Assembly (NCBI GenBank): GCA_902595065.1
Contig: CACJOM010000001.1
Coordinates: 67,463-131,462 of the forward strand
Source of the DNA: an uncultured SAR86 cluster bacterium
GTDB lineage: Bacteria; Pseudomonadota; Gammaproteobacteria; Magnimaribacterales; D2472
Direction of reading: 5' to 3'
DNA length: 64,000 bases
The position numbers and the translations under genes were made by a program. Position 1 is the stretch's first letter. Each line of letters begins with the position of its first letter. Below are positions 44,149 through 62,493 of the stretch, piece by piece. The notes under the pieces were generated by a model, which had not been told where the DNA came from, did no database searches, and was given only the letters and a program-made list of their open reading frames with translations.

Positions 44149-44895
44149 GTGAATACATTTTATGAAATTATTAAGCTAGTAAAAGCTAGTGAGCGAACAG
44201 TAATTTTAACTGGTGCCGGTATTAGCACAGAATCTGGGCTACCTGATTTTAGAAGTAATAATGGTTTTTGGACTAAAAATAAACCTATTCAATTCAACGA
44301 ATTTTTGTTAAGTGAAGAAAAACAAAGGTTATCATGGGAGAGAAATATTGAGCTCCATTCGCTTCTTAAAAACATAAAGCCAAACACAGGACATGCTTTT
44401 GTCGAAAAAGTCATTAGATTGCAAAAAAACAATTTTTTAATCACTCAAAACATAGATGGGTTACATCAAAAATCGGGTATCAGCAAAAATAAAATCATAG
44501 AGATTCATGGTAGTGCCATTGAGGCTGCATGCCTGGAGTGTGAAGCAAAACAAAATATTTTAGATTTCCACGATGCTATTAAATCTAAAACTCCATTACC
44601 AAAATGCTCTGTTTGTGGTGGCGTTGTGAAGGTAGCCACTATCTCTTTTGGTCAGCCTATGAATGAAATCGATATGATGCATGCCTCAAAAATTGTTGAG
44701 GAGAGCGATTTAATGATTGTCATGGGCTCATCTTTAAAAGTGCTACCTGCAGGAAAGCTTCCTAATTTAGCAATGCAATCAGGGTCAAAGCTTATTATCT
44801 TAAATAGAGAAAAAACCCGTTATGACTCAAGTGCAGACATAGTAATTAATGATGAGTTACATAACATATGTAGCAAGCTAATTGAGGAGCTTTAG
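44149..44895 (+). CDS. Sir2-family NAD-dependent protein deacylase (GTG start)
   Basis: GAGISTESGLPDFR, TQNIDGLH, HGS, CLEC/CSVC zinc site, GSSL. Confidence 0.95.
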   Translation: MNTFYEIIKLVKASERTVILTGAGISTESGLPDFRSNNGFWTKNKPIQFNEFLLSEEKQRLSWERNIELHSLLKNIKPNTGHAFVEKVIRLQKNNFLITQNIDGLHQKSGISKNKIIEIHGSAIEAACLECEAKQNILDFHDAIKSKTPLPKCSVCGGVVKVATISFGQPMNEIDMMHASKIVEESDLMIVMGSSLKVLPAGKLPNLAMQSGSKLIILNREKTRYDSSADIVINDELHNICSKLIEEL

Positions 44896-45938
44896 TCGTG
44901 CATTAGGGCTGCCCTGCCAAGAATTTTGCCATTTTTGAGGTCTTCCAAAGTCTGATTTGCCTGAGAGGCCGGTCTTTTTTCTACAGGGATTGGATCTACC
45001 TTTCCAGATCTTACAAGCTCCATCAACTCATGCATATCACCCGGACTACCAGTGTATGAACCTTGCACGCCTCTTTCCATGATTGGGATTAGAGGTAAAG
45101 GAAGTTTTAACTCGCCTCCATATAACCCTACGATAATATACTTACCGCCTTTTCTTAAAAGGTTAGTTCCAAATGCAGTTGACTGTTCTGAACCAACAAA
45201 ATCTATGGCAACAGATGCATTGCCACCAGTGATTTCAAAAACTTTCATCATTGCATCCTCGCTCAGGGGATTGATAGCAGCTGATGCACCATTTTCAAGA
45301 GCTAATTTAAGCTTTTCTTCATCTACATCTACAACGATTGGATTGCAGTTGAATGCTGCCTTGGCAATCTGTAAACCCATCATGCCTACACCTCCAACAC
45401 CAATGATAATTAAATCATTATCGGAATTATAAGGAGCTCCTTTTTTAAGAGCGCTATAAGCTGTTAGACCTGAACAGGCATAGCTACCTGCTAAATGTTC
45501 AGGCGTATCTCCTGCATCATGTAAATATTTTGAATCTGGGACTACAACATGATCTCCAAAACCTCCAGGCTGCATAACTCCAATAACAGGGCCTGTATTA
45601 CATAGATGTTCATCGCCATTAGCACAAACATCACAATTACTGCATCCAATCCATGGGTAAACAATCCTTTTATCTCCAACATTAATGTTAGTTGCCTCTG
45701 GCCCCACTGCTACGACTTCTCCAAAAACTTCATGACCTAATGTGAATGGATTAGGTACAGGGACAGGTAATTCGTTGCCGCCACCTAAATCAAATGCACC
45801 CGAGTGTATGTGAACATCGGAATGGCAAACTCCGCAAGCTATAGTTTTAATAATTACCTGACTTCCAGTTGGCTCAGGTGTTGGGGACTCTACTTCTACA
45901 AGTGGCTTTCCGGCCTCCATAGCTTGGTATGATTTCAT
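44892..45938 (-). CDS. Zinc-dependent medium-chain alcohol dehydrogenase
   Basis: CGVCHSD, GHE, structural Zn C-X2-C-X2-C-X7-C, GVGGVG. Confidence 0.93.
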   Translation of the reverse strand: MKSYQAMEAGKPLVEVESPTPEPTGSQVIIKTIACGVCHSDVHIHSGAFDLGGGNELPVPVPNPFTLGHEVFGEVVAVGPEATNINVGDKRIVYPWIGCSNCDVCANGDEHLCNTGPVIGVMQPGGFGDHVVVPDSKYLHDAGDTPEHLAGSYACSGLTAYSALKKGAPYNSDNDLIIIGVGGVGMMGLQIAKAAFNCNPIVVDVDEEKLKLALENGASAAINPLSEDAMMKVFEITGGNASVAIDFVGSEQSTAFGTNLLRKGGKYIIVGLYGGELKLPLPLIPIMERGVQGSYTGSPGDMHELMELVRSGKVDPIPVEKRPASQANQTLEDLKNGKILGRAALMHD

Positions 45939-45952
45939 ATTTTAAATTACCA
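45925..45952. promoter_or_regulatory. Inverted-repeat motif copy 1, degenerate (TGGTATG-N14-ATTACCA)
   Basis: Same spacing as the copies at 52574 and 55695; overlaps the ADH start codon. Confidence 0.45.
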
Positions 45953-46012
45953 AAAAAATGATTACTTGATTATAATAACTGCTCTTTAAATAAGCGCAAG
46001 CAATCAAAAAAT

Positions 46013-47197
46013 ATGGAACATTTGGAACACTTTAGACAAGAAGTTAGGGATTGGTTAGAGGAAAACTGCCCTCCTTCCATGAGGACTCCCCTCGTGCCAG
46101 AAGAGGAGGTTTGGGGCGGCAGAAATGCAGAATATGTTAATCCTGAATCGAAATTGTGGCTTGAGAGAATGGGCAACAAAGGTTGGACTGCTCCCAATCT
46201 ACCAAAGGAATATGGTGGCGGGGGTCTAGATAGAGATCAAACCAAAGTCCTTCATCAGGAGCTATATAGAATTAAAGCAAGACCAGCATTAAATAGCTTT
46301 GGTATATGGATGTTAGCACCATGCATAATTGAATTTGGTTCAGAAGAGCAAAAAAGAGAGCATCTCCCTAAAATAATCAAAGGCGAAATTAGGTGGTGCC
46401 AAGGTTATTCCGAGCCTGGTTCAGGATCTGATCTAGCTAGTCTCTCTACTAAGGCAGAGGATATGGGCGATCATTATTTAGTTAATGGTCAAAAAGTTTG
46501 GACTTCGTATGCTGATAAAGCAGATTGGATATTTGCCCTGGTTAGAACTGGTCCAAAAGAGCCAAAACATAATGGAATTAGTTTTTTACTCATTGATATG
46601 GCTACTGAGGGAGTTAGCACCAAACCAATCACACTTATCAGTGGCAAATCACCGTTTTGTGAAACTTTCTTTGATAATGTTAAAGCTCCAAAAGAAAATC
46701 TAGTTGGTGTAGAAAATTCTGGCTGGACGATAGCAAAAAAGCTCTTGCAACATGAAAGAAACTTTATTTCCAATTTTGGCCTTGCTGGAGGCGGGACTGG
46801 CTCTGGGGCAGATGTTGTAAACATTGCTAAAAAATATTTAGGCGAAGCTAATGGCCAAATAGCTAATCAAGCTCACAGAGAAAATATTACATTACATAAA
46901 ATGAAAGAGCATGCATTTGGATTAACCTTGCAGCGCTCTGGAGATGAAGGTGCAAAGGCTTCAGCAGCATCATCAATGTTCAAATACTACGGTACTGAAC
47001 ATAACAAAGATCGCTATGAGCTAATGATTGCTGCAATGGGTAATAAAGGCTTAGGCTGGACAAACGAGGGTTTTTCGGATGATGAGCAAGCCATAACGAA
47101 AGCATGGCTGAGAACTAAAGCTAACTCAATTGAGGGGGGAACTTCTGAAGTTCAACTCAATGTTATTTCTAGAAGAGTTCTAGATCTTCCCAACTAA
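46013..47197 (+). CDS. Acyl-CoA dehydrogenase, catalytic-type chain of a probable heteromeric pair
   Basis: WCQGYSEPGSGSDLASL, NGQKVWTS, HER, IEGGTSEVQ. Confidence 0.92.
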   Translation: MEHLEHFRQEVRDWLEENCPPSMRTPLVPEEEVWGGRNAEYVNPESKLWLERMGNKGWTAPNLPKEYGGGGLDRDQTKVLHQELYRIKARPALNSFGIWMLAPCIIEFGSEEQKREHLPKIIKGEIRWCQGYSEPGSGSDLASLSTKAEDMGDHYLVNGQKVWTSYADKADWIFALVRTGPKEPKHNGISFLLIDMATEGVSTKPITLISGKSPFCETFFDNVKAPKENLVGVENSGWTIAKKLLQHERNFISNFGLAGGGTGSGADVVNIAKKYLGEANGQIANQAHRENITLHKMKEHAFGLTLQRSGDEGAKASAASSMFKYYGTEHNKDRYELMIAAMGNKGLGWTNEGFSDDEQAITKAWLRTKANSIEGGTSEVQLNVISRRVLDLPN

Positions 47198-47204
47198 GGA
47201 ACAT

Positions 47205-48344
47205 ATGAAATTAATACTTACAGAAGAACAACAGTTTTTAAAAGATACTGCTCAAAGTTTTGCTAGAGATAAAACGCCTGTAACTCATTTTCGAGAAATG
47301 CGAGATAGTGAAAATAGCCAATGCTGGGATCAGTCAGTATGGAAAGAAATGGTCGAGTTGGGCTGGTCTGGAATTCTTGTTCCTGAAAAATTTGGTGGTT
47401 CAGAATTTGGGATGGCTGGTATCAGTGTAATCATGCAGGAATTGGGCAAAACTCTTACCCCCTCTCCCATATTATCGACATCAGTTCTTGGGGTCTCAGC
47501 GATCAATATGCTTGGCTCAGATGAGCAAAAAGAAAATTATCTGCCAAAAATAGTAGCTGGTGAGCTTACAACTGCATTAGCAATTGACGAAGGCAATCAT
47601 CATGACCCTTTTGCCATTGAAGCCACTGCGGTTCTTGATGGAGATGAGTGGGTACTAAATGGAAAAAAAGTATTTGTTGTGGATGGTGCAAGTGCTGATA
47701 CTGTTTTATTAGTTGCACGAACTTCTGGTAAATCAGGAGAATCAAATGGAATCTCGGTATTTGCTGCAAACAATGATAGCCCTGGGTTAAATATAACAAA
47801 GATTGCAACTGCTGATTCTAGAAATTATGCAAACATTGAGATGTCTGATCTTAAATTAGACCAAAATGCCTTATTGGGCGAGCAAGACTTAGCTGGTGAA
47901 ACCCTTGAGAGAATTCTTGATTTAGGTCGCATTGCTATTTCAGCAGAGATGTTAGGAAATACCGAAGAAGCTTTTGAGGTCACCGTTAATTACCTTAAAG
48001 AAAGAAAACAATTTGGTGTTCAAATTGGGTCATTTCAAGCGCTTCAACACAGAGCGGCTAAAATGTTTTGCGAAATTGAATTAACAAAATCAGCTGTGAT
48101 TGCTGCCATGCATGCTGCAGATGAAAATTCAAATGAGCTAGAGAGACTTGCAAGCCTTGCTAAGTTTCAAGCTGGAGAAACACTCCATCTGGTAAGCAAT
48201 GAAGCAATCCAAATGCATGGTGGAATAGGTGTAACTGACGAATATGATATCGGTTTCTATCTTAAAAGAGCGCGAGTGGCTGAGCAAATCTTTGGAACCT
48301 CAGAATTTCATCAAGCCAGGTATGCAGATATAAGCGGTTTCTGA
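47205..48344 (+). CDS. Acyl-CoA dehydrogenase, partner-type chain
   Basis: LNGKK-FV-DG, YLKERKQFGVQIGSFQALQH, AIQMHGGIG; lacks the SEP-GSD motif. Confidence 0.9.
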   Translation: MKLILTEEQQFLKDTAQSFARDKTPVTHFREMRDSENSQCWDQSVWKEMVELGWSGILVPEKFGGSEFGMAGISVIMQELGKTLTPSPILSTSVLGVSAINMLGSDEQKENYLPKIVAGELTTALAIDEGNHHDPFAIEATAVLDGDEWVLNGKKVFVVDGASADTVLLVARTSGKSGESNGISVFAANNDSPGLNITKIATADSRNYANIEMSDLKLDQNALLGEQDLAGETLERILDLGRIAISAEMLGNTEEAFEVTVNYLKERKQFGVQIGSFQALQHRAAKMFCEIELTKSAVIAAMHAADENSNELERLASLAKFQAGETLHLVSNEAIQMHGGIGVTDEYDIGFYLKRARVAEQIFGTSEFHQARYADISGF

Positions 48345-49123
48345 TGTCCTCAATCACAACCTTGCTCGAGACAATGCGCATGCTTCGAGACAAGGATAAT
48401 GGATGCCCATGGGATATCGAACAAACCCTTGAATCTCTTTCCCCTTGCGTTATAGAAGAAGCGTATGAGGTCTCAGATGCTATCGCTAACAAAGATTATG
48501 AAAATCTTAAAGAGGAGCTTGGAGATGTTTTACTTCAAGTTATATTTCAGGCAGAGATAGCCAATGAGTCAGAGTTATTTGACTTTGATGAGGTAGTTGA
48601 TTCATTAAACAAAAAATTGATTAGAAGACATCCTCATGTCTTTGATGGAGCCTCAAAACCGCTTTCAGCTAAAGAGCAAACCCAAGTATGGGATGAAATA
48701 AAAGCACAAGAAAAAAATAAAAAAGATATATACAAAACCTTTGCTGACATACCTGCATCACTCCCTCCAATCTTAAAAGCAAAAAAAATACAAAAAAAAG
48801 CTGCTAAAAAAGGTTTCGACTGGAAAGAAAGCATTGAGGTTATCGAAAAGATCGAAGAAGAGTTAAAAGAGCTCAAACATGAAATCCAGCAAAATAATAA
48901 AGAAAATAGCCTAGAAGAATTAGGAGATTTATTGTTTTCTATCATTAATTTAAGTCGACACTTAGAAATCGATGCAAGTGAAGCTATCAATCAAGCCAAT
49001 CATAAATTTGTAAAGCGCTTTAGGTTGATGGAAGAAGAGATTGCTAAAGATAAAAAAGATCTAGACAATCTTTCGCCTGAGGAGCTAGAAGAATTTTGGG
49101 TTAAAATAAAATCGCATGGGTAG
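48344..49123 (+). CDS. mazG: Nucleoside triphosphate pyrophosphohydrolase
   Basis: GCPWD-EQT, EEAYEV, EELGD, RRHPHVF, GFDW, second EELGDLLF. Confidence 0.96.
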   Translation: MSSITTLLETMRMLRDKDNGCPWDIEQTLESLSPCVIEEAYEVSDAIANKDYENLKEELGDVLLQVIFQAEIANESELFDFDEVVDSLNKKLIRRHPHVFDGASKPLSAKEQTQVWDEIKAQEKNKKDIYKTFADIPASLPPILKAKKIQKKAAKKGFDWKESIEVIEKIEEELKELKHEIQQNNKENSLEELGDLLFSIINLSRHLEIDASEAINQANHKFVKRFRLMEEEIAKDKKDLDNLSPEELEEFWVKIKSHG

Positions 49124-49997
49124 ATTGAAAAGATTATTTATAGGCATCCTGACCTTTTTTGCAATTTTAATTATTCTCAGTTTTTGGTTAGTCCCCCTAT
49201 CAATCACAAATATTCCTAGAATTATTCCTAATAAAAATTTGAAGATTTATTTAGGTTCCATTTCAAATAAAATGGGTAGCGCGGCTGTTGCTAGCATCAC
49301 AACAGCTTTAAAAATATTGCATAAACTTGAATGGGATTTTCAAATACCTAAGGATGTGAATACTGAGACTTGGTACATTGCTATGAGTAACCATCAGTCA
49401 TGGGCTGATATATTTATTTTATTGGCTGCGGGGCATAAAAAAATGCCTCTGCTAAAGTTCTTTATGAAAAAGGAATTGCAATGGATACCACCTATTTATT
49501 TAGTCCATAAAACAGTAGATATGCCATTTTTAAATAGGCATTCGAGAGCTCAAATTCTGGCAAATCCAGAGTTAAAGAGAGTTGATTATGAAAATGCGAA
49601 GAAAGCTGCAAAAAGATTTTCTAGAAATCCCTCTACAGCATTTAGCTTTGCTGAAGGAACTAGGTTCACTCCCGAAAAGCATTCTGTGCAGGAATCCCCC
49701 TACTCTAATTTACTAAAACCAAAAGTAGGAGCTCTGGCGATTGCATTATCAGGAATGCCTCAAGTTAATACTTTGGTTGATTTTACAGTCGTGTATTCAT
49801 CTGAAAAAAGATCAACATGGGATTTCCTCTGCGGCGACTTAAACAAAGCAAAAGTAGTGGCAAAGACATATGCTTTGCCTGAAAATCTTAAAAATAGATC
49901 TTTCGAAGAAGAAGATGATTACAGGAAAAGCTTCCAAACATTCGTTGATGCAATCTGGTTAGAGAAACAACAAACGATTAAAGATTTAAAGCTCTAG
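49116..49997 (+). CDS. PlsC-family acyltransferase (YihG-like)
   Basis: NHQSWADI (HX4D), FFMKKEL-WIP, FAEGTRFT. Confidence 0.9.
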   Translation: MGRLKRLFIGILTFFAILIILSFWLVPLSITNIPRIIPNKNLKIYLGSISNKMGSAAVASITTALKILHKLEWDFQIPKDVNTETWYIAMSNHQSWADIFILLAAGHKKMPLLKFFMKKELQWIPPIYLVHKTVDMPFLNRHSRAQILANPELKRVDYENAKKAAKRFSRNPSTAFSFAEGTRFTPEKHSVQESPYSNLLKPKVGALAIALSGMPQVNTLVDFTVVYSSEKRSTWDFLCGDLNKAKVVAKTYALPENLKNRSFEEEDDYRKSFQTFVDAIWLEKQQTIKDLKL

Positions 49998-50465
49998 CTT
50001 ATTATCAGCAACCAACCAGCCGTTTTGATCAATGTAAATCCATTTCCCAGAAATCATAACCACGCTTCCAAATGAGATTAATACATCTTCAAAACCATGA
50101 TTTTTTTTATTTGTTTTTTGGGCAACCGCTCCTTTAGCAAAGATACCTATAGGAAGATTCATCAGCTCCTCAACGTCTCTAACGCAGCCATTAACCACAA
50201 TGCCTGCCCAATTATTTTTTACTGCAGATTCTGCAATTTGGTCTCCAATCATGGAGGCATGAGTTACACCAGAAGCATCTATAACCAAAACTTTATTTTT
50301 TCCCTCTCGAGAGAGAACTTCTTTCACAACAGAGTTATCATCCGAGCAAGAAACTGTATATATCTCTCCTGAAATTGAGTGCCTGCTCCCAAAGGATTGC
50401 AATGGGAGTTTGCCAATTTGAATTTGCTCGGGATGTTGATCAGACAGGTCTGGCAAAGAGGTCAT
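49986..50465 (-). CDS. rraA: RraA family protein (ribonuclease E regulator / HMG aldolase)
   Basis: TSLPDLSD, DNSVV, VLVID, GD-IA, GCVRDV, DQNG. Confidence 0.88.
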   Translation of the reverse strand: MTSLPDLSDQHPEQIQIGKLPLQSFGSRHSISGEIYTVSCSDDNSVVKEVLSREGKNKVLVIDASGVTHASMIGDQIAESAVKNNWAGIVVNGCVRDVEELMNLPIGIFAKGAVAQKTNKKNHGFEDVLISFGSVVMISGKWIYIDQNGWLVADNKLEL

Positions 50466-51493
50466 AACTTTAATTTTTCTATTTTGTTTAATTTATCTAT
50501 TATATCTATTCTTCTCGCATCATTTTCCAAGTCTGCCCAAGAAATTGATCCTGAAGCTTTTAATTTAGTTAGCTTTTCTGACTGAGAAATTTTTTCTTTC
50601 TCTAAAAAATTAATTGCCTCTAAAGCTGCAGGTCTATCATTGCAAACCAATACCATGTCACAACCGCTCTCTAATGCTTTACCCACTTTGGCTTCAATGC
50701 CTCCCACATAATCTGAACCCTTCATTGAGAGGTCATCACTAAAAATTGTTCCAGTAAATTCCATTTTATTTCTTAAAACATCTTGCAGCCAAAATTTTGA
50801 AAAGGTTGCTATTTCTTTATCAATACTTGAAAAAGAAATGTGAGCCGTCATTATCCCACCAAGTTGATGCTTTAAAGCATCAAAGGGACGCAAGTCATGG
50901 CGCTCTAGTTCTGATAAAGATCTAGTATCTTGAGAAAAAGTTAGATGGCTATCAGCAAAGATACCGCCATGTCCTGGAAAATGCTTACCAGTAGCCTGCA
51001 TTCCAGCTTGATTCATACCTTTAATAAAGGCACTTGCAATAGCAATAACCTTCTCTGGATTATCACCTATTGATCTATCACCAATAACAGAGCTTCTAGA
51101 ATCATCTAGATCTAACACTGGTGCAAAACTTATATCTAATCCTGATGCAATCACCTCTGAGGCCATTAGCCAACCTAAATCGGTTGCAAAGGGAAAGTTT
51201 TTATCACTATCTGAATTTAAAAATGCTGCTAGTTTTTGCATAGTCGGCAAAATTGTATAGCCTTCTTTTAGACGCTGAACCCTTCCTCCCTCTTGATCTA
51301 CTGCAATAAGAAGCTCGGGATTTATATTTCTGATTGCTCCACATAACTCTTGAACTTGATCTCTTGAAGAGATATTTCTTGCAAATAAAATCACGCCCCC
51401 TACATGTGGATTAGGCAGTAATTTATTTTCTTCTTGAGTAAGCGAGATTCCATCCAGATCGAGCATTAACCTCCCAAGAAAAGATTTGCTCAT
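50462..51493 (-). CDS. nagZ: Beta-N-acetylhexosaminidase (GH3)
   Basis: DQEGGRVQRL, FAPVLD, KHFPGHG--ADSH, SDDLSM. Confidence 0.96.
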   Translation of the reverse strand: MSKSFLGRLMLDLDGISLTQEENKLLPNPHVGGVILFARNISSRDQVQELCGAIRNINPELLIAVDQEGGRVQRLKEGYTILPTMQKLAAFLNSDSDKNFPFATDLGWLMASEVIASGLDISFAPVLDLDDSRSSVIGDRSIGDNPEKVIAIASAFIKGMNQAGMQATGKHFPGHGGIFADSHLTFSQDTRSLSELERHDLRPFDALKHQLGGIMTAHISFSSIDKEIATFSKFWLQDVLRNKMEFTGTIFSDDLSMKGSDYVGGIEAKVGKALESGCDMVLVCNDRPAALEAINFLEKEKISQSEKLTKLKASGSISWADLENDARRIDIIDKLNKIEKLKL

Positions 51494-52506
51494 AATTTTT
51501 CTTTTAGTGAGGTAATTAATGCTTTAGTTACCTCAGGATCTCCTGAGAAGATTGAAGGAGCTAATCTTGAAGCAATAGAACCATATCGATCAAAAATGAT
51601 GTCTGAAACATCATCTGGAGTTCCAGTCACGGCGATGCTATCTAAAATTTCATCTGAAATGAGATTTGGAATATCTTGCCATAATCCTTTTTTAGTTAGG
51701 CTATTAAGCTCTGGCTGAATGCTTTCCCAGCCATGTTGCTCTAAAACTATTTTATAGGCAGGAGTAGAACCATAAAATCCAATTTGTGCCTTACAAGCAT
51801 CCCTTGCTTTAGCAATTTCTTCATCGGTTATTCCCGTTGCAACCATAACACCCACAGAGAAATCGAATTCTTGAGTTCCTGACAATTCAAGACCTTTTTT
51901 CACTGATGGCAAAGTAATATTTTCAAGAAACTTAGTTGTATGAAAAGGATGCACAATAAACCCATCGCCAGATTCAGCTGCAGCTTGAGTCATCAGTGGG
52001 CCCACGCCTGCAACATATATTTTTGGAAGACCAAATGGATTTTCTCCTGGATTAAAAAAAGGAGTCATCAATGTATGCTTATAAAATTCTCCTCTAAAGT
52101 CTAGATCTTTCCCTTCGTGCCAGCATCCCCATATGGCCTTGATGGCACCAACCATTTCTTTCATGCGTTTTGCAGGTGAAGACCAGAGCATGGAGTATCT
52201 CTTCTCAATATGAGGTTTTATTTGAGAGCCCAAACCAAGAGTGAACCTCCCTTTGGACATCAATTGCAGATCGTATCCAATATTAGCCAAAGTCATGGGA
52301 TTTCTAGAAAATGCTACAGCAATTGAAGTTGAAAGTTCTAATTTTTCAGTTGCTAGAGCGGCTGCTGCAAGAGGAAGGAATGGCTCATGCGGTCCCTCAA
52401 ATGTGTATGCTCCATCGTATCCAAGATTCTCAAGGTTTTTGCTAACATTTGAAGCCTCAGCTGGATCTCGTGTAATCATCGAGCAGTCAACTTTAATTTT
52501 TTTCAT
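51490..52506 (-). CDS. Luciferase-like monooxygenase (LLM) family oxidoreductase, resembling the putative F420-dependent MSMEG_2256 subfamily
   Basis: EGPHEPFLPL, TSIAVAFSRNPM, GRFTLGLGSQIKPHI--R, HTLMTPFF, FYGSTPAY. Confidence 0.8.
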   Translation of the reverse strand: MKKIKVDCSMITRDPAEASNVSKNLENLGYDGAYTFEGPHEPFLPLAAAALATEKLELSTSIAVAFSRNPMTLANIGYDLQLMSKGRFTLGLGSQIKPHIEKRYSMLWSSPAKRMKEMVGAIKAIWGCWHEGKDLDFRGEFYKHTLMTPFFNPGENPFGLPKIYVAGVGPLMTQAAAESGDGFIVHPFHTTKFLENITLPSVKKGLELSGTQEFDFSVGVMVATGITDEEIAKARDACKAQIGFYGSTPAYKIVLEQHGWESIQPELNSLTKKGLWQDIPNLISDEILDSIAVTGTPDDVSDIIFDRYGSIASRLAPSIFSGDPEVTKALITSLKEKL

Positions 52507-52573
52507 ATTGAATTATTTTTTACTTAATCATGAATGATTATGATGGATGTATTCCATTTTGTGTATCCCGAGT

Positions 52574-52599
52574 GGTAATATAAAAATCAGTCTATTACC
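52574..52599. promoter_or_regulatory. Inverted-repeat motif copy 2 (GGTAAT-N14-ATTACC)
   Basis: GGTAATA/TATTACC arms in the divergent gap between the LLM and NMO-family genes. Confidence 0.6.
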
Positions 52600-52613
52600 T
52601 ATTAGGAATAATA

Positions 52614-53750
52614 ATGAACTCAAAAATTTGTGAACTTCTTGATATTGAATTCCCCCTTGTTGCATTTACACACTGTAGAGATGTGGTTGTAGCAGTCTCA
52701 AAAGCTGGAGGATGTGGCGTTTTAGGAGCTGTTGGAATGACCCCTGAGCAGCTGGAGGAAGAGCTGAAGTGGATTGATGAGCATATAGATGGGTTGCCAT
52801 ACGGTGTGGATGTTTTAATCCCTAATAAAATGGCAGATCAAAATCAAAAATTTGATGCTGAGAAATTAACTTCAATGATACCGCAAGAATATGCAGATTT
52901 TAGGGCAGATGTTTTAGAAAAGCATGATATTGAAGCTGATGAATTAAGAACAATTAAACCGGCTGCAACTTACATGGCTGAAAATACTAAGGCAGATGGT
53001 GCAAAAGCTTTGCTGGATGTTGCATTCAGTCACCCAATTAAAATAATTGCAAATGCATTGGGTGTTCCACCTGACTGGATGGTGCAGATGGGAAAAGACA
53101 ATAATGTAAAAGTTGCTGCTCTTTTAGGAACAGCACAACATGCGATCAATCAAGTAAAGGCAGGTGTTGATATTTTGGTTGTTTCAGGCACAGAAGCTGG
53201 CGGACATTGTGGCAGCGTTTCAACCATGGTCTTAATCCCTGAAGTTCATAAAGCTATTCAACCCTATGGCGATGTTCCAATTCTTGCCGCAGGAGGAATC
53301 GCAACTGGAAGACAGATGGCAGCTGCAATGAGCATGGGAGCATCAGGTGCTTGGTGTGGATCTGTATGGTTAACAACTGCTGAGTCTGAAGTGCCGCCCG
53401 TGATTAAAGAGAAAATGGTAGCTGCTACCTCAAGTCAAACAACTAGATCAAGAAGCAGAACAGGAAAGCACTCAAGACAGCTTGTGTCTGAATGGACAAA
53501 AGCATGGGAAGCAGATGGAGCTCCTGAGCCACTTCCATTGCCTCTTCAACCCATGGTGGCTGAACCAGCTTTAGCAAAAGTTAATAAATTAGCAGAAGGT
53601 GGTCATGAAGGCGCAAAAGAACTCTCAACTTACTGGGTTGGTCAAGGCGTTGGGTTAATGAATCAGACAATTTCAGCAAGTGATGTTGTGCAAGAATTCA
53701 AAGAAGACTTCATTGAAGCATACGAGAGATTATCAAGCTTTGTTGAGTAA
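52614..53750 (+). CDS. Nitronate monooxygenase family FMN oxidoreductase
   Basis: AFTHCRDVVVAVSKAGG, GTEAGGH, AAGGI-TG, GAWCGS-WL. Confidence 0.88.
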   Translation: MNSKICELLDIEFPLVAFTHCRDVVVAVSKAGGCGVLGAVGMTPEQLEEELKWIDEHIDGLPYGVDVLIPNKMADQNQKFDAEKLTSMIPQEYADFRADVLEKHDIEADELRTIKPAATYMAENTKADGAKALLDVAFSHPIKIIANALGVPPDWMVQMGKDNNVKVAALLGTAQHAINQVKAGVDILVVSGTEAGGHCGSVSTMVLIPEVHKAIQPYGDVPILAAGGIATGRQMAAAMSMGASGAWCGSVWLTTAESEVPPVIKEKMVAATSSQTTRSRSRTGKHSRQLVSEWTKAWEADGAPEPLPLPLQPMVAEPALAKVNKLAEGGHEGAKELSTYWVGQGVGLMNQTISASDVVQEFKEDFIEAYERLSSFVE

Positions 53751-53777
53751 ATTGTATAGAACACAATTAACACAAGC

Positions 53778-54998
53778 TTGATAACTTTAAAACAAAACTT
53801 AATATCGTATTCTCAAATTTTTCTATGGGGATGCCTTATTTTTTTAACTGCTTCTAATGCTTGGTTTTCAAATAAACTTCACATATCGATCAGCCACTTA
53901 ATTTATTTAAATTTTATTTTGCTATTTATAGTTAATATCAGACTAATTCTTGAATATTTCAAATATCTAATTTCGAACAATATAAAAATACTTGATACAT
54001 ATATTTTTGTAAGTATTTTTATTTACCTTTTTTCAGCAATTAGTTCATATAAGCTAAATTTAGACATAGTTATTTTTGCTTCGATCTATTTTTTGCTGAG
54101 ATCTTGGTCATTACCCTGTTCACGTTCTTTAAATAAAGAAAATATCTTATATGGAGTAATAATTTGCGGTTTGATATCCGCATTTGGAATATTTTTTGGA
54201 ATATTTGAGTATTTTGTTTTGGAGAGCTCATATTTCTTTGAAGCAAAAGACACACCTTCTCTCTTTAAACTTTTTCCTGTTCATCTTGGTGGCTTCTATG
54301 AAAGTTATAACCAAGCAGCTTATATAATAATTGCAGCATTGGGAGTATTAGGATTTGTAAATCTCTCAAAAAATCAAAAATTCTTTTTTGAAATAATTTT
54401 TTGTGTTTCTCTGTTGTTAAGTGGTGCAAAAATTATATTTTTATTCTTTGCTGTTTCTTTGATATTAAAATTATTTGAGCAAAGGAATATTCTATTTACA
54501 AAATCTTTAATTCTATTGGTATCAATTGGCTACTTATTCCTTGCGCACATAGTATTTACTATTGCAAATGAGGTGGTCTTGAATGACAAATATTATAAAG
54601 AACTCATTTTTCAAATTGATGATATCAATATTTACTTAAGTCTATTTTCATGGCTAAAAATTGAAAGTTTTAATTATTTGATAAATTCTATCGAACAGGG
54701 CTTTTCAATAGTTGATTTTAATAATTTCACAGATGGTTATGATCCACATTTTTTACTCGCATCGTTGACTTTTATCGGAGGCATCGTATTCGCATGCCTT
54801 GTCTATATGAGAATACTTTATTCAGCATATATAAATCTAAGGTATAAAATAAAGAATCAAATATTCTTTTCATCTTTAATAATAGTTTTTATTGTTGAGA
54901 CTATTATCTGGGACTCTCATCATTCAATGATTTTCTGGATAGTAATGACGTATAGCTTTGTCTCAAAAAATAAATATGAGATAAAGGATTTAAATTAG
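53778..54998 (+). CDS. AT-rich polytopic membrane protein, weakly O-antigen ligase/polymerase-like (TTG start)
   Basis: About 10-12 hydrophobic segments; YNQAA, LLSGAK and DPHF...GG fall where Wzy_C proteins carry N--A, LT-SR and H-N...G-G. Confidence 0.55.
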   Translation: MITLKQNLISYSQIFLWGCLIFLTASNAWFSNKLHISISHLIYLNFILLFIVNIRLILEYFKYLISNNIKILDTYIFVSIFIYLFSAISSYKLNLDIVIFASIYFLLRSWSLPCSRSLNKENILYGVIICGLISAFGIFFGIFEYFVLESSYFFEAKDTPSLFKLFPVHLGGFYESYNQAAYIIIAALGVLGFVNLSKNQKFFFEIIFCVSLLLSGAKIIFLFFAVSLILKLFEQRNILFTKSLILLVSIGYLFLAHIVFTIANEVVLNDKYYKELIFQIDDINIYLSLFSWLKIESFNYLINSIEQGFSIVDFNNFTDGYDPHFLLASLTFIGGIVFACLVYMRILYSAYINLRYKIKNQIFFSSLIIVFIVETIIWDSHHSMIFWIVMTYSFVSKNKYEIKDLN

Positions 54999-55019
54999 GT
55001 GGAATGTATCAACAATTAA

Positions 55020-55643
55020 TCATTGAGTTTCTGAATATCGAATAGAGGTTGCTCTTTTAAATCCATCTCTATCAAACAGCATATCCGTCCAACGTTTGAT
55101 ATTAGGCTTAAACGCTTCCTCTATTTGAAGTGACTTAGCTAAATATATTGCATAACTCACACATATATCTGCAATGGTAAATCTATTTGAACACAAGTAT
55201 TCTCTTGATTCCAAAGTCAGCTCAAGCAACTTTAATCTCGCAACAAACCATCTTCGATATCCCTCTGCTGCTTTATCGGCAACACCTATCTCTTGAAGGG
55301 TATATCTAAGTACTACAGTTTGAGGAAAGGTTAATGTCGCATCAGAGTGAGCAAGCCAATTTAAATAATGATGATAGTCAGCTTCATCACTGTTAACACG
55401 CAAGTCTGTGGGGCCATATTTTTCCACTAGATATTGGCACATTGCAACTGATTCTGTCATTTCTACCTCGCCATCAATAAGGTACGGGATAGTGCCAAGA
55501 ATATTTATATCCATGTATTCCTTGTGCAAAAACCTTGGTGGGAATGGCATCATTTCAGTCTCATAACTTAACTCCATTTCCTCTGCAGTCCACATTGGCC
55601 TAACGCCTCTAGAATCATTACAGCTATAAATTTTGATGCTCAT
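55020..55643 (-). CDS. Glutathione S-transferase family protein
   Basis: SRGVRPMW, G-IPYL-DG, ESVAM--YL, FTIADI. Confidence 0.93.
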   Translation of the reverse strand: MSIKIYSCNDSRGVRPMWTAEEMELSYETEMMPFPPRFLHKEYMDINILGTIPYLIDGEVEMTESVAMCQYLVEKYGPTDLRVNSDEADYHHYLNWLAHSDATLTFPQTVVLRYTLQEIGVADKAAEGYRRWFVARLKLLELTLESREYLCSNRFTIADICVSYAIYLAKSLQIEEAFKPNIKRWTDMLFDRDGFKRATSIRYSETQ

Positions 55644-55693
55644 TATTTTGCCCTCATAAAGAAAACCACAATTTTTAAAATTAATTTCAAAAA

Positions 55694-55721
55694 TGGTAAT
55701 TATTTGTTTATTATATTACCA
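55694..55721. promoter_or_regulatory. Inverted-repeat motif copy 3 (TGGTAAT-N14-ATTACCA)
   Basis: Perfect 7-bp arms in the divergent gap between GST and the carboxylase operon. Confidence 0.6.
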
Positions 55722-55741
55722 CTCAATTTTATTAAATAAAA

Positions 55742-57400
55742 ATGCTTAGAAAAAACATAGCTCCCGAAATTAAAACAAATATTGACATCAATTCTGATGA
55801 ATTTATTCATAATAAAAATGTGATGTTAAAGAAAATAAATTTTCTTGATGAGCTTTTAGATAAGGCTGAATTGGGAGGCGGTGCCTATCATCACGAAAGA
55901 TTAGCAAAGCGAGGCAAAATGCCTGTAAGGGAAAGGGTCTTTAATTTACTTGATCCTGATACACCCTTCCTCGAGATTGCTCCATTTGCTGCATATGGAA
56001 CAGACTTTACTGTTGGAGGCGGATGTGTAGCTGGAATTGGAATTGTTGCTGGCACTGAATGTGTAATCTTTGCTAACGATCCTTCAGTTTTAGCTGGCGC
56101 TATGACGGTTTATGTTGGAGAAAAATGGAACAGGGCAATGGAAATCGCTAGAGATAATCGTCTTCCGTATATTAATTTTGTTGAATCTGCAGGAGGAGAT
56201 CTGAGAATGGGTACTGGCAAGAAAGGAGATCAACCCTCAATCGCACCCACCATAGGTCATACTCATTTTGCAGCAACTGGAAGATATTTTTATGATCTAA
56301 CAGAACTTTCTAAAATGTGTATACCAGTAATATCAATTGTTTTCGGCTCATCAACTGCCGGTGGTGCATATCAACCAGGTATGTCAGATTACAATATCTT
56401 TGTTAAAGATCAAGCCAAAGTATTCCTTGCAGGACCTCCTTTAGTCAAAATGGCGACTGGTGAAGTGTCAGATGATGAGACCTTAGGTGGCGCAAAGATG
56501 CATTCCGAAGTTTCAGGCCTTTCAGATTTTTTAGCTGAAGATGAAATGGATGCCTTGAGATTATGTAGAAATGTTGTATCACATTTACACTGGATAAAAG
56601 AAGGCCCTTCTCCTCTCCCTGATGCTGACAGCCCAAGTTTATCTCAAGAAGAATTATTAGGTCTTGTTGATGAAGAGCTTAAAAGTCCGCTTGATATTAG
56701 GGAAGTGATTGGTCGAATTGTTGATGGATCTAGGTTTGAAGAGTATAAGCCGCTATATGGCAAGACTATGGTTTGTGGATGGTCAATGCTTCATGGATAT
56801 CCAATAGGCATATTAGGAAATAATGGGCCCATCTACCCAGAAAGTGCGGAAAAAGCTGCAACCTTTATCCAATTATGCAATAAACGAAACATTCCATTAA
56901 TTTTTCTTCAAAATGTCACAGGGTTTTTGGTTGGAAAGGATTTTGAGAGACAAGCTATTATCAAAAAAGGGTCTCAGCTTATTAATGCAGTGTCTAACTC
57001 TAATGTTCCTCATATCACAATTATTATTGGGGCATCATTTGGTGCAGGTACATACGCTATGTCAGGGAGAGCATATAACAATAGATTCACCTTCCTCTGG
57101 CCAACAGCAAAAATTGCTGTTATGGGTTCTAAGCAGATTGCTGGAGTAATGTCTATTGTGCGAAGAGGTCAAGCCGCAAGAAAAGGTGAAAAATTTGATG
57201 AGAAACAAGATGCTGAAATCGTAAAGATGGTTGAACAAATGTCAGACCAGATGTCTGAGGGTCTGGTTGCAAGCAGTATGGTTACTGATGATGGCATCAT
57301 TGACCCAAGAGATACAAGAAGTGTAATTGGATTTTGCCTATCTATAGTTTCTAACTCTTCAATTAATGGAGCTAAAGAATATGGAGTATTTAGATTATGA
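55742..57400 (+). CDS. Acyl-CoA carboxylase carboxyltransferase subunit (AtuC/AccD2-like)
   Basis: RERV--LLD, VESAGGDL, GSSTAGGAY-PGMSD, FLAGPPLVKMATGE, DDGIIDPRDTR. Confidence 0.9.
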   Translation: MLRKNIAPEIKTNIDINSDEFIHNKNVMLKKINFLDELLDKAELGGGAYHHERLAKRGKMPVRERVFNLLDPDTPFLEIAPFAAYGTDFTVGGGCVAGIGIVAGTECVIFANDPSVLAGAMTVYVGEKWNRAMEIARDNRLPYINFVESAGGDLRMGTGKKGDQPSIAPTIGHTHFAATGRYFYDLTELSKMCIPVISIVFGSSTAGGAYQPGMSDYNIFVKDQAKVFLAGPPLVKMATGEVSDDETLGGAKMHSEVSGLSDFLAEDEMDALRLCRNVVSHLHWIKEGPSPLPDADSPSLSQEELLGLVDEELKSPLDIREVIGRIVDGSRFEEYKPLYGKTMVCGWSMLHGYPIGILGNNGPIYPESAEKAATFIQLCNKRNIPLIFLQNVTGFLVGKDFERQAIIKKGSQLINAVSNSNVPHITIIIGASFGAGTYAMSGRAYNNRFTFLWPTAKIAVMGSKQIAGVMSIVRRGQAARKGEKFDEKQDAEIVKMVEQMSDQMSEGLVASSMVTDDGIIDPRDTRSVIGFCLSIVSNSSINGAKEYGVFRL

Positions 57401-59316
57401 GATTTAATTCAATTCTTGTTGCTAATCGTGGAGAGATTGCTTGTCGAATCATGCAAACCGCTCAATTTATGGGTATTAAATGTGTAGCTGTTTTTGTTGA
57501 TGCTGATAGGGATGCTCCATTTGTAAAGATGGCTGATGAAGCTATAAAGTTATCTTCTAGCTATATGGATGGCTCTGCCATTATTGATGCAGCTAAACAA
57601 TCTGGAGCAGAAGCAATCCATCCAGGATATGGTTTTTTATCTGAAAATGCAGCCTTTGCTAGAAAAGTTAAAAGCAATAAATTAATTTGGATCGGCCCAT
57701 CCCCCCATGTAATCAAAGTGATGGGTGATAAATTAAAAGCTAAAGAAATAGCAGAAAAATCTGGGGTTCCCACCCTGCCAATGACCTCAAATACCAAAGA
57801 TGTTAAAAGTATTGGCTACCCGATCTTGATCAAAGCTGCCGCTGGAGGTGGTGGTAAAGGAATGCGAATTGTTGAAAAAGAAAGTGAGTTAAAAGATTCA
57901 ATCGTAAGTGCCAAAAGAGAAGCTCTTTCAGGTTTTGGTGATGACAGAATTTTTATAGAAAGATATGTAGAAAAATCACGTCATATTGAAATACAAATCT
58001 TAGGTGATGAACATGGCAATGTTGTTCATTTAGGAGAACGTGAATGCTCCATACAAAGAAGGCATCAAAAAATTATTGAGGAGTCGCCTTCCCCAAGAAT
58101 TGATCCCTTCTTAAGGGAGGAGATGGGTCAAGCAGCTATTAAGTTAGCTAAAAAAATTAAATACTGCTCTGCAGGAACTGTTGAATTTTTGTTTGATGAT
58201 AAAACAGATGAATTCTGGTTTTTAGAGGTAAATACTAGACTGCAAGTTGAGCACCCAGTTACAGAAGAAGTTACAGGAATAGATTTGGTTGCTGAGCAAA
58301 TCAAGATAGCGAGAGGAGATGAGCTTGAGTTTGCCCAAGATGATATTGACTGGCATGGACATGCAATTGAAGCAAGATTGTATGCTGAGGATCCTGGAAA
58401 TAACTTTTTACCTGAAATTGGAACCCTACACGCATATGATACTAGCCTAGCTTCAGAGGTAAGATGGGATTCAGGCGTGGAAGAAGGTAGTGTTATTGGA
58501 ACAGATTTTGATCCCATGTTGTCTAAAGTTATTTCTTGGGCTCCTAATAGAATTGATGCCGCAAATAAACTGGCACGCGGACTTGAAAAAGTTCACATGG
58601 GAGGTGTGGTAACAAATCGTCAATTTTTAATTTCTTGCTTAAGAAATGAAAGTTTCTTAAACGGAAATTCAACAACAGACTTTGTTGAGCGTGAAGCTTT
58701 AGAAACGAAAAAAAATCTTTCTGTAAATGAACTTCATCAAACATCGACAGCAATTGCTTTATGGCTAGCGCAAAAAAATAGAGTCTCTGACCCTGTTACA
58801 GGTTTTATGCCTGGAAACTGGAGCAATGGAAGAATGCCGCTTCAAAGGGTTAAGTTACTTTTTGTGCAAGATGAGATCGAAGTAAAGTATAAATTAAATA
58901 AAGATAATTTTTATGAAGTTATGGGCTCCATTTGTAAAATTTACCATTGCGATAGTTTTGGCATTGATATACAGATAGACTCTCACAGATTTTATGCTCA
59001 CATAACTGAGGCAGGCAGTGAGATCGTCATAAATATGCCATTTGGAGACGTTAATGCATCTGTTCTACCTAGGTTTATAGAACCAGGTAATGACATCCCT
59101 GAGGGGGGATTGATAGCTCCAATGCCTGGAAAAGTTATTGATGTGAAAGTCAAAAAAGGCAGTAAAGTAAAAGCTGGTGATACTTTGGTAATTATTGAGG
59201 CTATGAAAATGGAGCATTCAATTAAAGCAACTGAGACAGGCAAGATAGCCAAAGTAATGATTCAACTGAATGATCAAGTTGATAACGGTGCTACCCTTCT
59301 CGTTCTTGAACAATAA
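57397..59316 (+). CDS. Biotin carboxylase / biotin carrier subunit (AtuF/AccA2-like)
   Basis: ANRGEIA, HPGYGFLSEN, GGGGKGMR, RECSIQRRHQK, EVNTRLQVEHPVTE, EAMKM. Confidence 0.93.
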   Translation: MRFNSILVANRGEIACRIMQTAQFMGIKCVAVFVDADRDAPFVKMADEAIKLSSSYMDGSAIIDAAKQSGAEAIHPGYGFLSENAAFARKVKSNKLIWIGPSPHVIKVMGDKLKAKEIAEKSGVPTLPMTSNTKDVKSIGYPILIKAAAGGGGKGMRIVEKESELKDSIVSAKREALSGFGDDRIFIERYVEKSRHIEIQILGDEHGNVVHLGERECSIQRRHQKIIEESPSPRIDPFLREEMGQAAIKLAKKIKYCSAGTVEFLFDDKTDEFWFLEVNTRLQVEHPVTEEVTGIDLVAEQIKIARGDELEFAQDDIDWHGHAIEARLYAEDPGNNFLPEIGTLHAYDTSLASEVRWDSGVEEGSVIGTDFDPMLSKVISWAPNRIDAANKLARGLEKVHMGGVVTNRQFLISCLRNESFLNGNSTTDFVEREALETKKNLSVNELHQTSTAIALWLAQKNRVSDPVTGFMPGNWSNGRMPLQRVKLLFVQDEIEVKYKLNKDNFYEVMGSICKIYHCDSFGIDIQIDSHRFYAHITEAGSEIVINMPFGDVNASVLPRFIEPGNDIPEGGLIAPMPGKVIDVKVKKGSKVKAGDTLVIIEAMKMEHSIKATETGKIAKVMIQLNDQVDNGATLLVLEQ

Positions 59317-59317
59317 T

Positions 59318-59920
59318 ATGAAATCTCACGCTGTCCTTTCAAAACAGTCGCCTCAACTTGGAAAGCGTCATCTTGAGGTTATGGACGAACTAGAAAGCAT
59401 GCTTGATAAAGGAAAATCATTTTCAACAATGTCTGATCTAGCAAAACAGTTGAAAATTTCACTAAGAACTCTATATGAAATTGCACCAAGCAAAGAGGAA
59501 TTAATAGTAACAACAGTTGATAGGGTACTAAAAAAACACGGCAAGATAGCTATAGATGCAATGAATGCTCATTCATCTCCAATAAAAAAATTAGAAAGTT
59601 TTTTGACTGTCGCTAATCAAGCAGTTGGGCCAAGATTTGAAAGATTCACGCTATCTCTTAGTAGTTTAAATTCATCTAAGGCAATGGTGGACTATCATGA
59701 ACAATACATAACTGACCTAATAAAAAATCTTTTAGATGAAGCAAGAATTAAAAATGAGATCAAAGAGATTGATACTCAGGCAACTGCATTACTTTTGGGA
59801 GGTCTGGGAAGATATTTTCAATCTAAGAAACTCTTGAAAGATTTACACCAAACTCCTGAAGAAACTAGTAATTTTTTAACAAAAATCATTATTGATGGCA
59901 TCAAAATGGAGAAATCTTGA
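59318..59920 (+). CDS. TetR/AcrR family transcriptional regulator (start ATG 59318)
   Basis: HTH TMSDLAKQLKISLRTLYEIAPSKEEL and a helical C-terminal domain. Confidence 0.85.
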   Translation: MKSHAVLSKQSPQLGKRHLEVMDELESMLDKGKSFSTMSDLAKQLKISLRTLYEIAPSKEELIVTTVDRVLKKHGKIAIDAMNAHSSPIKKLESFLTVANQAVGPRFERFTLSLSSLNSSKAMVDYHEQYITDLIKNLLDEARIKNEIKEIDTQATALLLGGLGRYFQSKKLLKDLHQTPEETSNFLTKIIIDGIKMEKS

Positions 59921-61692: not shown

Positions 61693-62480
61693 GCATAGAT
61701 AAATTATCTTTAGAGGGTTTGGACTTTCAAGCAACGAAAATTAATATTAAAAATAATATTTTAACCATCACATTAAATCGACCTGAGAAAAAAAATGCAT
61801 TAAACAATGTGATGGTAAACGAGCTAAATTATGCTTTAGCTTACGCCAAACAAGAAAGAGAAATTAGGGTTGTTGTGATTGATGCTGAGGGAGATATTTT
61901 TTGTGCTGGAGCTGATCTACGAAGAGCAAAAGAAGAGTCTAATGTCCCAAAATTAGAGGGGGCAGATGACATCAGTTTTTCCCTAAGAAGACTGCACAAA
62001 CCAGTAATATGCAAAATTCAAGGCTCTGTCTTGGCTGGGGCCTTGTTGATTTTAACCAATGCAACTCATGCCATAGCAGTTGATAATGCTAAGTTTTCTG
62101 CGCCTGAGATACACAGAGGCCTATGGCCTTTTATGGTCATGGCTGGGTTGTTCAGAGTAATGCCTAAGAGAGCTGGGCTTGATTTTATTATGCGTGGTCA
62201 ACCCATTGATGCCAATAAAGCTGAGATGTGGGGGTTAATCAATGAGTCTGTTGCGGCTAATGAGCTGGATAAAAGAGTTAGCGAGCTAGCTGAAGAACTA
62301 GCTAGTCTAGCCCCAGGAACCATGCAATTTGGTCTCGAGGCATATGAAAAACAAGATGCGTTAGAGTTTGATGAAGCTCTTCCATATTTACAAAAACAAA
62401 TTGCTAAATGTTTTGAAGGTGATGATGCTAAGGAAGGTATTGCTGCGTTTTTAGAAAAAAGAAAACCAAATTGGAAATAA
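61689..62480 (+). CDS. Enoyl-CoA hydratase/isomerase
   Basis: ITLNRPEKKNAL, FCAGADL, APEI, EGIAAFLEKRKP. Confidence 0.93.
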   Translation: MSIDKLSLEGLDFQATKINIKNNILTITLNRPEKKNALNNVMVNELNYALAYAKQEREIRVVVIDAEGDIFCAGADLRRAKEESNVPKLEGADDISFSLRRLHKPVICKIQGSVLAGALLILTNATHAIAVDNAKFSAPEIHRGLWPFMVMAGLFRVMPKRAGLDFIMRGQPIDANKAEMWGLINESVAANELDKRVSELAEELASLAPGTMQFGLEAYEKQDALEFDEALPYLQKQIAKCFEGDDAKEGIAAFLEKRKPNWK

Positions 62481-62493
62481 ATAAGGAAGATTT

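Follow-up and report, generated by a model that had tools for sequence, protein, structure and literature searches.

In the 64-kb stretch of SAR86 DNA analyzed here (the window, to which all positions refer unless a locus is named), a 28-bp palindrome separates a GST-family gene from an operon, putatively for the degradation of fatty acids or terpenes, that resembles the atu gene clusters of Pseudomonas. This palindrome (site A) is probably the operator of a TetR-family repressor that is encoded within the operon under its control. Two related palindromes (sites B and C) lie in the same window, and all three had been pointed out in a preliminary reading of the letters alone (the sequence-only reading). 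The arrangement is an ordinary kind of genetic switch and not a new kind of mechanism; the case for it is good at site A and weak at sites B and C. The window belongs to SAR86, and its TetR protein is 79-100% identical in 25 SAR86 species genomes.

Three palindromes in the window

Site A reads TGGTAAT-N14-ATTACCA, with an exact core, GGTAAT-N14-ATTACC, at 55695-55720. The same core occurs exactly at 52574-52599 (site B), between an LLM oxidoreductase gene and an NMO-family gene, and TGGTATG-N14-ATTACCA (site C), whose core at 45926-45951 carries two mismatches, lies between a Zn-dependent alcohol dehydrogenase (ADH) gene and a pair of acyl-CoA dehydrogenase (ACAD) genes. The palindromes were found where the sequence-only reading had placed them, and its gene assignments at the three junctions agree with Pfam and NCBIfam (Table 1).

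The exact 12-base pattern GGTAAT-N14-ATTACC occurs twice in the window and in none of 100 dinucleotide-preserving shuffles. When up to two mismatches are allowed, 5 matches are present against 2.3 expected. The sequence-only reading had proposed to judge the motif by its frequency relative to shuffled DNA; by this measure the exact form stands out and the two-mismatch form does not, so that site C is not significant. Enumeration of recurrent 6-Nk-6 palindromes across the window showed that TAAAGC-N0 and TCAGAA-N11 also recur, inside genes, by chance. Because such chance recurrences arise within coding sequence, recurrence alone is weak evidence, and position and conservation must carry the case.

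A symmetrised position weight matrix (PWM) was trained solely on the site A orthologues of 11 distant SAR86 lineages, with no window sequence included. In a scan of the 64 kb, sites A (24.1 bits), B (19.5 bits) and C (13.7 bits) were the top three matches and the next reached 4.0 bits, in keeping with the earlier remark that other junctions of the window lack a comparable match. Against an independent-base background, the counts expected per window are 2e-4, 3e-3 and 4e-2 for A, B and C, respectively. In 983 kb of low-GC SAR86-like DNA, no PWM match of at least 12 bits was found outside the positions orthologous to A, B and C. On the PWM ranking, the expected counts and the 983-kb scan, B and C are not ordinary background, and these results together with the shuffles reject a chance origin for A and B.

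Conservation of site A

Of 33 SAR86 loci that include the GST/carboxyltransferase junction, 32 have an exact orthologue of site A, over carboxyltransferase identities of 72-99%; the orthologue is likewise exact in all 19 genomes of the window's clade whose sequence covers this junction. Part of the material comes from a metagenome scan anchored on an ACAD gene (ACAD1), hence without selection for TetR, and its loci span wide divergence. Each of the 11 distant lineages (carboxyltransferase 72-86% identical, TetR about 50%) contains exactly one GGTAAT-N14-ATTACC, always upstream of the carboxyltransferase gene and with a different spacer in each. Alignment of the lineages on the motif delimits the conserved unit as the 28-bp palindrome T-GGTAATAT-N10-ATATTACC-A (T0 to A27), with a diverged centre and diverged flanks. 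No variation is seen among 13 lineages at T0, at A27 or at any of the 12 core positions of the arms, whereas the central 10 bp have a majority-base fraction of 0.69 and the flanking sequence one of 0.54-0.68. Among genomes of the window's clade, the diversity of the site A arms is 0.010, compared with 0.29 for the remaining spacer, and purifying selection there acts on site A only.

Conservation of the arms across lineages in which the spacer has diverged bears out the idea of an operator-like element. The wider proposal of a dedicated regulon over six transcription units did not hold, as only the GST/carboxylase site is conserved and under purifying selection; conservation in orthologous promoters was thus found for site A, whereas B and C drift or decay in close relatives. 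Site A is very probably a real, well-conserved and autoregulated operator of the TetR type, the 28-bp palindrome serving as the binding site of the operon-encoded repressor.

The TetR-family protein and its pairing with the palindrome

The TetR gene begins 1 nt past the stop codon of the biotin carboxylase gene and its own stop codon overlaps the start of the AtuA gene, which implies co-transcription with the operon. Site A lies 21 bp upstream of the first gene of this operon, in the promoter region of its putative co-transcribed targets. The protein, named AcrR/TetR family in sources, is by its profile matches a divergent member of the TetR family. In a PDB search with a profile of 8 orthologues, the best match was the TetR-family structure 6azh (residues 29-200, E=3e-7), followed by KstR, SlmA, UidR and AefR, in agreement with the layout of the family, an N-terminal TetR-type helix-turn-helix and an all-helical ligand domain, about 200 amino acids long. 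The helix-turn-helix segment LKISLRTLYEI(A/S)PSK is invariant among orthologues whose overall identity is 47-50%, an invariance that parallels that of the palindrome arms.

Of the loci with the palindrome, 26 continue beyond the biotin carboxylase gene, and every one of them carries the TetR gene; in one of these loci, L041, its first 70 codons are visible at the locus end. In the ACAD1-anchored set, seven loci have both palindrome and TetR, one (L054) has neither, and none is discordant. L054 is the single locus without the palindrome, its best match having four mismatches, and also the single locus without the TetR gene. There AtuA directly follows biotin carboxylase (L054:19150-19164), and a TetR profile HMM gave no match over the 21 kb of this locus, with positive controls at E=1e-101 to 1e-104. 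Its spacer between the GST and carboxyltransferase genes (L054:15534-15579) is only 45 bp long and carries, in place of the palindrome, a different symmetric extended -10 element, TTGATATAATATCA. The only DNA-binding regulators detected by Pfam in the window are LexA and this TetR. The joint loss in L054, the invariant helix-turn-helix and the lack of another transcription factor but LexA in the window make the TetR at 59318, already named by the sequence-only reading, the best candidate binder.

Several observations weigh against the repressor reading. The Pfam TetR_N match of the protein (21.1 bits, E=2.6e-4) falls short of the cut-off of 24. The co-occurrence of regulator and operator rests on a single independent loss, since the joint disappearance of TetR and palindrome is one evolutionary event, that in L054, and the 19 genome loci were retrieved with TetR as the query and are therefore unable to test co-occurrence. 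The palindrome arms fit an extended -10 element, so promoter function could explain part of their conservation. At site B the arm diversity (0.19, against 0.18 for neutral spacer) indicates no purifying selection, and at site C (0.16 against 0.22) there is no clear constraint beyond the left arm, which is coding.

Promoter geometry and alternative readings

The first G of site A follows the -10-like hexamer TAAAAT at a distance of 13 bp, and in most lineages a hexamer of this kind (TATAAT, AATAAT, TATTTT or TAAAAT) occupies -19 to -14 from that G. The window's hexamer is a candidate core promoter of the operon, with which the palindrome would fall at about +6 to +33 of the transcript. A consensus scan proposed instead TTCAAA-17-TATTAT, overlapping the site A palindrome, at chance level. 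Because the consensus promoter scans of all three spacers stayed at chance level, the promoter geometry is inferred rather than demonstrated. No terminator was found in the three spacers.

The sequence-only reading had itself offered extended -10 elements as an alternative to an operator. In the distant lineages, both arms read TGGTAATAT on their own strand and fit the extended -10 form TGnTAnnnT; in the window, the arms with the TGGTAATAT form are the right one of A and the left one of B. Facing boxes of this type, one on each strand, might drive the GST gene and the operon with no repressor at all. In line with such a reading, loci that have lost the right arm of site B (L004-6, L034) still keep the left arm together with the preceding block, as for an NMO -10 element, and the TetR-less L054 has another compact symmetric extended -10. 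However, orthologous -10 boxes usually drift among TAnnnT variants, whereas here the G at the 'n' position and the non-consensus TAATAT are invariant on both strands, in lineages that share about 50-79% identity with the window in their operon and flanking proteins. The N10 spacing is fixed, which is not a promoter requirement. Promoter-like degeneracy is not seen. The boxes stand face to face 10 bp apart, which gives no workable divergent geometry: the predicted start sites would cross by about 3 bp, and two polymerases would be mutually exclusive. Furthermore, most lineages have a separate -10-like hexamer ahead of the palindrome, none of the other promoters in the window carries TGGTAAT, the promoter scans are at chance level, and the joint loss with TetR is left unexplained. 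The resemblance to extended -10 elements thus stands, probably also as the NMO -10 at site B, while the invariant G, the fixed spacing and the joint loss are not accounted for; that the arms are promoter elements only is quite unlikely.

It is also unlikely that the palindrome is the operator of another regulator encoded elsewhere, with the operon TetR controlling something else. The inspection covered about 64 kb and ±10 kb around the orthologous loci, and the co-occurrence with TetR amounts to conserved gene order plus a single loss event, which leaves some room for such a regulator. On the other hand, TetR-family regulators mostly control adjacent or co-transcribed genes (PMC3511530), the invariance of the helix-turn-helix matches that of the arms, the palindrome is gone exactly where the TetR gene is gone, and Pfam shows no further transcription factor nearby (LexA aside in the window). 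It is very improbable that the palindrome acts at the RNA level, as a hairpin in the 5' leader of each divergent transcript that affects stability or translation. The palindrome can be folded as a stem of 7-11 bp with a loop of 10-14 nt, and some distant lineages fold somewhat better than shuffles (L046, -12.4 kcal/mol, z -2.35), but the window's own hairpin, at -5 kcal/mol (z -0.30), is weak and does not outdo shuffled sequence. The arms are invariant without compensatory changes, which points to sequence-specific recognition over structure, and Rfam gave no RNA family for the palindrome; the sole Rfam match in the window is a tRNA gene at 6238-6309.

Some further candidates were rejected. 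The sequence-only reading had found the palindrome unlike LexA sites, and this is supported by the true SOS boxes of the window, which differ in sequence. Two canonical boxes (ATACTGTA-N6-TACAGTAT) are present, at 10067-10088 upstream of an umuD-like/umuC pair (10099-11795) and at 36700-36721 upstream of lexA (36729-37346). A Fur-like reading of GATAAT-like strings applies to three lineages only, and judged by eye the arms and spacing do not fit. An origin in a phage or other mobile element was also rejected: when viral contigs were searched for the 28-bp pattern, three unrelated matches came up, without homologues of the window's genes.

Sites B and C

Site B reaches at least 18.7 bits in 10 of 18 clade genomes and is decayed in L004-6, L012, L015, L019, L022, L023 and L034; these loci keep site A and TetR, except L034, whose locus ends before site A. 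It is confined to the window's clade, the distant lineages carrying site A alone. The left arm of site B forms the end of a strongly conserved NMO promoter block, ...CATTTTGTGTATCCCGAGTG(G/A)TAAT..., and because this block survives in relatives without the right arm, the left arm probably functions as the extended -10 element of NMO. The right arm is kept in L020 and L022 despite an altered spacer, and in L041 the NMO gene (92% identical) is inverted and directly divergent from the carboxyltransferase gene across the palindrome, both of which favour site B as a binding site. Site B is probably an accessory, clade-specific site. It seems fairly likely to be bound where intact, and NMO probably belongs to the regulon within this clade.

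Upstream of site B, the block ATGATTATGATGGATGTATTCCATTTTGTGTATCCCGAG (52527-52572) is better conserved than any other part of the LLM/NMO spacer; it contains a TGTAT...TGTAT direct repeat and may hold promoter elements or the site of a second regulator. In L041, the NMO-GST segment (L041:15551-17414) is inverted relative to window positions 52507-55741, and the NMO and carboxyltransferase of this locus are far closer to those of the window than its neighbour genes are (50-79%), a pattern that hints at recombination between lineages. The palindromes were not accepted as site-specific inversion sites: NMO-GST is inverted in L041, but no recombinase lies nearby and most lineages have A without B.

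At site C, the left arm is formed by three ADH codons, Ser3-Tyr4-Gln5; at the four-fold degenerate position of the Ser codon, each of the four bases occurs among relatives. The right arm contains TTACCA, a -35-like hexamer of TTACCA-18-TATAAT, the only promoter-like match in the ADH/ACAD spacer. Each of three close relatives has a different additional mismatch. Site C is thus doubtful and, judged from these comparisons, would at best be weak. The perfect palindrome ATTATAAT, which gives TATAAT on both strands and forms part of this sole promoter-like match, is kept in every relative, L040 and L041 among them, and probably serves the ADH gene and the ACAD pair as a symmetric bidirectional core promoter.

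There is a substantial, if lesser, chance that B and C are fortuitous look-alikes outside any regulon, B combining an extended -10 element with a chance right arm and C combining ADH codons with a -35-like hexamer. The arm diversities given above, equal to neutral spacer at B and slightly lower at C, agree with such an origin, as do the loss of B in relatives that still have TetR and site A, the variable Ser position and scattered mismatches of C, and the restriction of distant lineages to site A. It is opposed by the low expected counts of both sites and the 10-bit gap to the next match, by the lack of any other match of at least 12 bits in about 1 Mb, and for B by the retained right arm in L020 and L022 and by the second arrangement, in L041, in which NMO adjoins the palindrome.

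Gene content of the locus

Gene assignments were checked with Pfam and NCBIfam. The genes of the atu-like operon abut or overlap, and their order is kept across SAR86 lineages. GST is the divergent partner of the operon in all lineages but L041. None of the operon proteins reaches the cut-off of an NCBIfam equivalog.

Table 1. Palindromes, promoter-like elements and genes at the three junctions of the window
Feature	Position	Strand	Remarks
Site A, predicted primary operator	55694-55721	none	TGGTAATTA-N10-ATATTACCA; junction of GST and atu-like operon, 21 bp upstream of carboxyltransferase ATG
Site B, putative accessory site	52573-52600	none	TGGTAATAT-N10-CTATTACCT; LLM/NMO junction, 14 bp upstream of NMO ATG
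Site C, doubtful site	45925-45952	none	TGGTATGAT-N10-AAATTACCA; overlaps ADH start codon (45938, minus), 61 bp upstream of ACAD ATG
-10-like hexamer TAAAAT	55676-55681	plus	13 bp upstream of first G of site A
Perfect palindrome ATTATAAT	45969-45976	none	TATAAT on both strands; conserved in all relatives incl. L040, L041
Zn-ADH gene	44892-45938	minus	Divergent from ACAD pair; start codon at 45938
PimC/PimD-like acyl-CoA dehydrogenase pair	46013-48344	opposite Zn-ADH	Pfam/NCBIfam
LLM oxidoreductase gene	51490-52506	minus	Divergent from NMO
NMO/FabK-like flavoenzyme gene	52614-53750	plus	Pfam NMO
GST-family gene	55020-55643	minus	Pfam GST_N/GST_C; divergent across site A
atu-like operon	55742-63717	plus	Pfam and NCBIfam
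Carboxyltransferase	55742-57400	plus	Pfam Carboxyl_trans
Biotin carboxylase/BCCP	57397-59316	plus	Biotin carboxylase with Biotin_lipoyl (Pfam)
TetR-family gene	59318-59920	plus	Inside atu-like operon
AtuA	59917-61692	plus	Pfam AtuA, E=1.6e-161
Enoyl-CoA hydratase	61689-62480	plus	Pfam ECH_1
Acyl-CoA dehydrogenase of atu-like operon	62494-63717	plus	Pfam Acyl-CoA_dh domains

Between NMO and GST, positions 53778-54998 encode a 406-aa multi-pass membrane protein with no Pfam match. This gene is missing from the closest genomes, in which sites B and A are 1856 bp apart (L001-L003), compared with 3121 bp in the window, and across SAR86 lineages the distance between NMO and GST ranges from about 0 to 3.2 kb. 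The locus L012 (JAYQIT010000001.1, labelled Luminiphilus sp.) shows a jump in G+C from 0.36 to 0.57-0.62 near locus position 12000, in the AtuA region about 2 kb past the start of the TetR gene, and the downstream SAR86 enoyl-CoA hydratase and acyl-CoA dehydrogenase genes are missing; its 1.1-Mb contig looks like a chimeric assembly of a SAR86 genome and a high-GC genome. In relatives of 58-59% G+C (L074, about 6900-6997; L075; L076), a 14-bp palindrome lies upstream of the ACAD1 orthologue, CCGGTATATACCGG in L074 and CTGGTATATACCGG in L075 and L076. Its GGTA...TACC core is reminiscent of the SAR86 arms, but without a spacer.

Proposed mechanism

When no ligand is present, the repressor would occupy the palindrome, a position overlapping or shortly past the start sites of the two divergent promoters, and would block the GST gene and the atu-like operon, and hence its own synthesis as well. 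A substrate of the pathway would then free the repressor; if the protein behaves like AtuR, RdmA and KstR-type regulators, the ligand may be a fatty acid, branched or isoprenoid, or the CoA ester of one. Two TetR dimers would probably share one operator, as QacR and IcaR do on 28-bp sites, because the arm centres are 19 bp (about 65 Å) apart, beyond the reach of one dimer; this stoichiometry is suggested by the centre-to-centre geometry only. In the window's clade, two additional matches would have arisen, B at the NMO promoter and C at the ADH/ACAD junction.

It is conceivable, although rather unlikely, that the half-site is also a working extended -10 element (TGnTAnnnT), so that the same nine base pairs would be recognised by both the repressor and sigma-70, on either strand of two promoters that face each other. 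If this were true, a SAR86 promoter with a TGGTAAT-type -10 could join the regulon by gaining one arm, which would account for the clade-specific gain and decay of the NMO and ADH/ACAD sites. It would also offer a tractable natural case of operator birth in a genome-streamlined, regulator-poor and globally abundant bacterium.

Comparison with known systems

The nearest functional parallel is AtuR/RdmA of Pseudomonas, in which a TetR-family repressor is paired with a cluster for acyclic terpene utilisation (atu) encoding AtuA, an AtuC/AtuF-like biotin-dependent acyl-CoA carboxylase, an AtuE-like hydratase and an AtuD-like dehydrogenase, and an inverted-repeat operator lies at the cluster promoter. 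By Pfam, proteins of the AtuA, AtuC/AtuF, AtuE and AtuD types are all encoded in the SAR86 operon. A second AtuR site, at the promoter of an acyl-CoA dehydrogenase gene, is known from Pseudomonas sp. OST1909 (bioRxiv 10.1101/2025.09.24.678253), and AtuR and RdmA respond to citronellic acid, decanoic acid or DSF-type fatty acids (PMC9973270; bioRxiv 10.1101/2025.09.24.678253). In contrast to atuR, which is divergent from atuA, the SAR86 TetR gene is co-oriented inside the operon between biotin carboxylase and AtuA, in distant lineages too. The operators also differ. That of P. aeruginosa AtuR consists of two 13-bp repeats, AGCAAGCGCTTGG and CCAAGCGCTTGCT, 40 bp apart (PMC9973270), that of OST1909 is TACAAACCAAGCGCTTGCTTGGTA (bioRxiv 10.1101/2025.09.24.678253), and AtuR sites contain CCAAGCGCTTGG (PMC9973270; bioRxiv 10.1101/2025.09.24.678253). 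These operators are G+C-rich, unlike the SAR86 operator TGGTAATAT-N10-ATATTACCA, and a Pseudomonas-type AtuR operator was rejected for the window, in which CCAAGCGCTTGG-type repeats have no match at up to two mismatches. The SAR86 system appears to resemble AtuR in function, yet it fails two defining AtuR features, the position of the regulator and the operator.

Binding of two TetR-family dimers to a 28-bp operator is an established mode, known from QacR and IcaR (PMC2275139). The likeness to QacR operators to which the sequence-only reading had pointed is thus a reasonable one. The SAR86 palindrome, 28 bp from T0 to A27, is likewise too long for one dimer and would likewise lie just downstream of the -10 element, across the start site. 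QacR and IcaR differ in being staphylococcal regulators of efflux and biofilm genes, and there is no close sequence relation: both are absent from the PDB profile matches at E<=0.01. KstR is similar as a local, ligand-released repressor of acyl-CoA-processing genes with a palindromic site, but its operator has a different sequence and spacing. The KstR match to the SAR86 TetR is weak and far under the family cut-offs (NCBIfam E=5e-4, 19.8 bits against a cut-off of 280; PDB profile E=0.0035). In 2009, Kazakov and colleagues reportedly defined by comparative genomics a PsrA/FadP/LiuQ class of TetR-type regulators of lipid catabolism, to which the SAR86 TetR may bear a likeness.

Symmetric bidirectional -10 promoters, as reportedly described by Warman and colleagues in 2021, have -10 boxes that overlap back to back and starts that diverge by about 18 bp. 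They share with the SAR86 palindrome an A-T-rich symmetric sequence at divergent genes, and good examples are ATTATAAT in the ADH/ACAD spacer and TTGATATAATATCA in L054. The SAR86 palindrome, however, has invariant instead of degenerate arms, and its boxes point towards each other across 10 bp.

Implications for SAR86

SAR86 bacteria are among the most abundant uncultured heterotrophs of the surface ocean, and their diet has been inferred from gene content alone. No literature linking SAR86 with acyclic terpene utilisation was found, and the 2011 SAR86 genome paper does not mention such a regulator. The pair of repressor and operator can be synthesised and tested in E. coli, and thus provides a direct experimental handle. 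A ligand that frees TetR from the 28-bp site would identify the class of lipid or isoprenoid degraded by the atu-like operon, and the pair could serve as a biosensor. The locus presents a clean phylogenetic footprint, in which the arms are invariant, the centre has diverged and the palindrome is lost jointly with its regulator, and secondary sites are seen to appear and decay within one clade.

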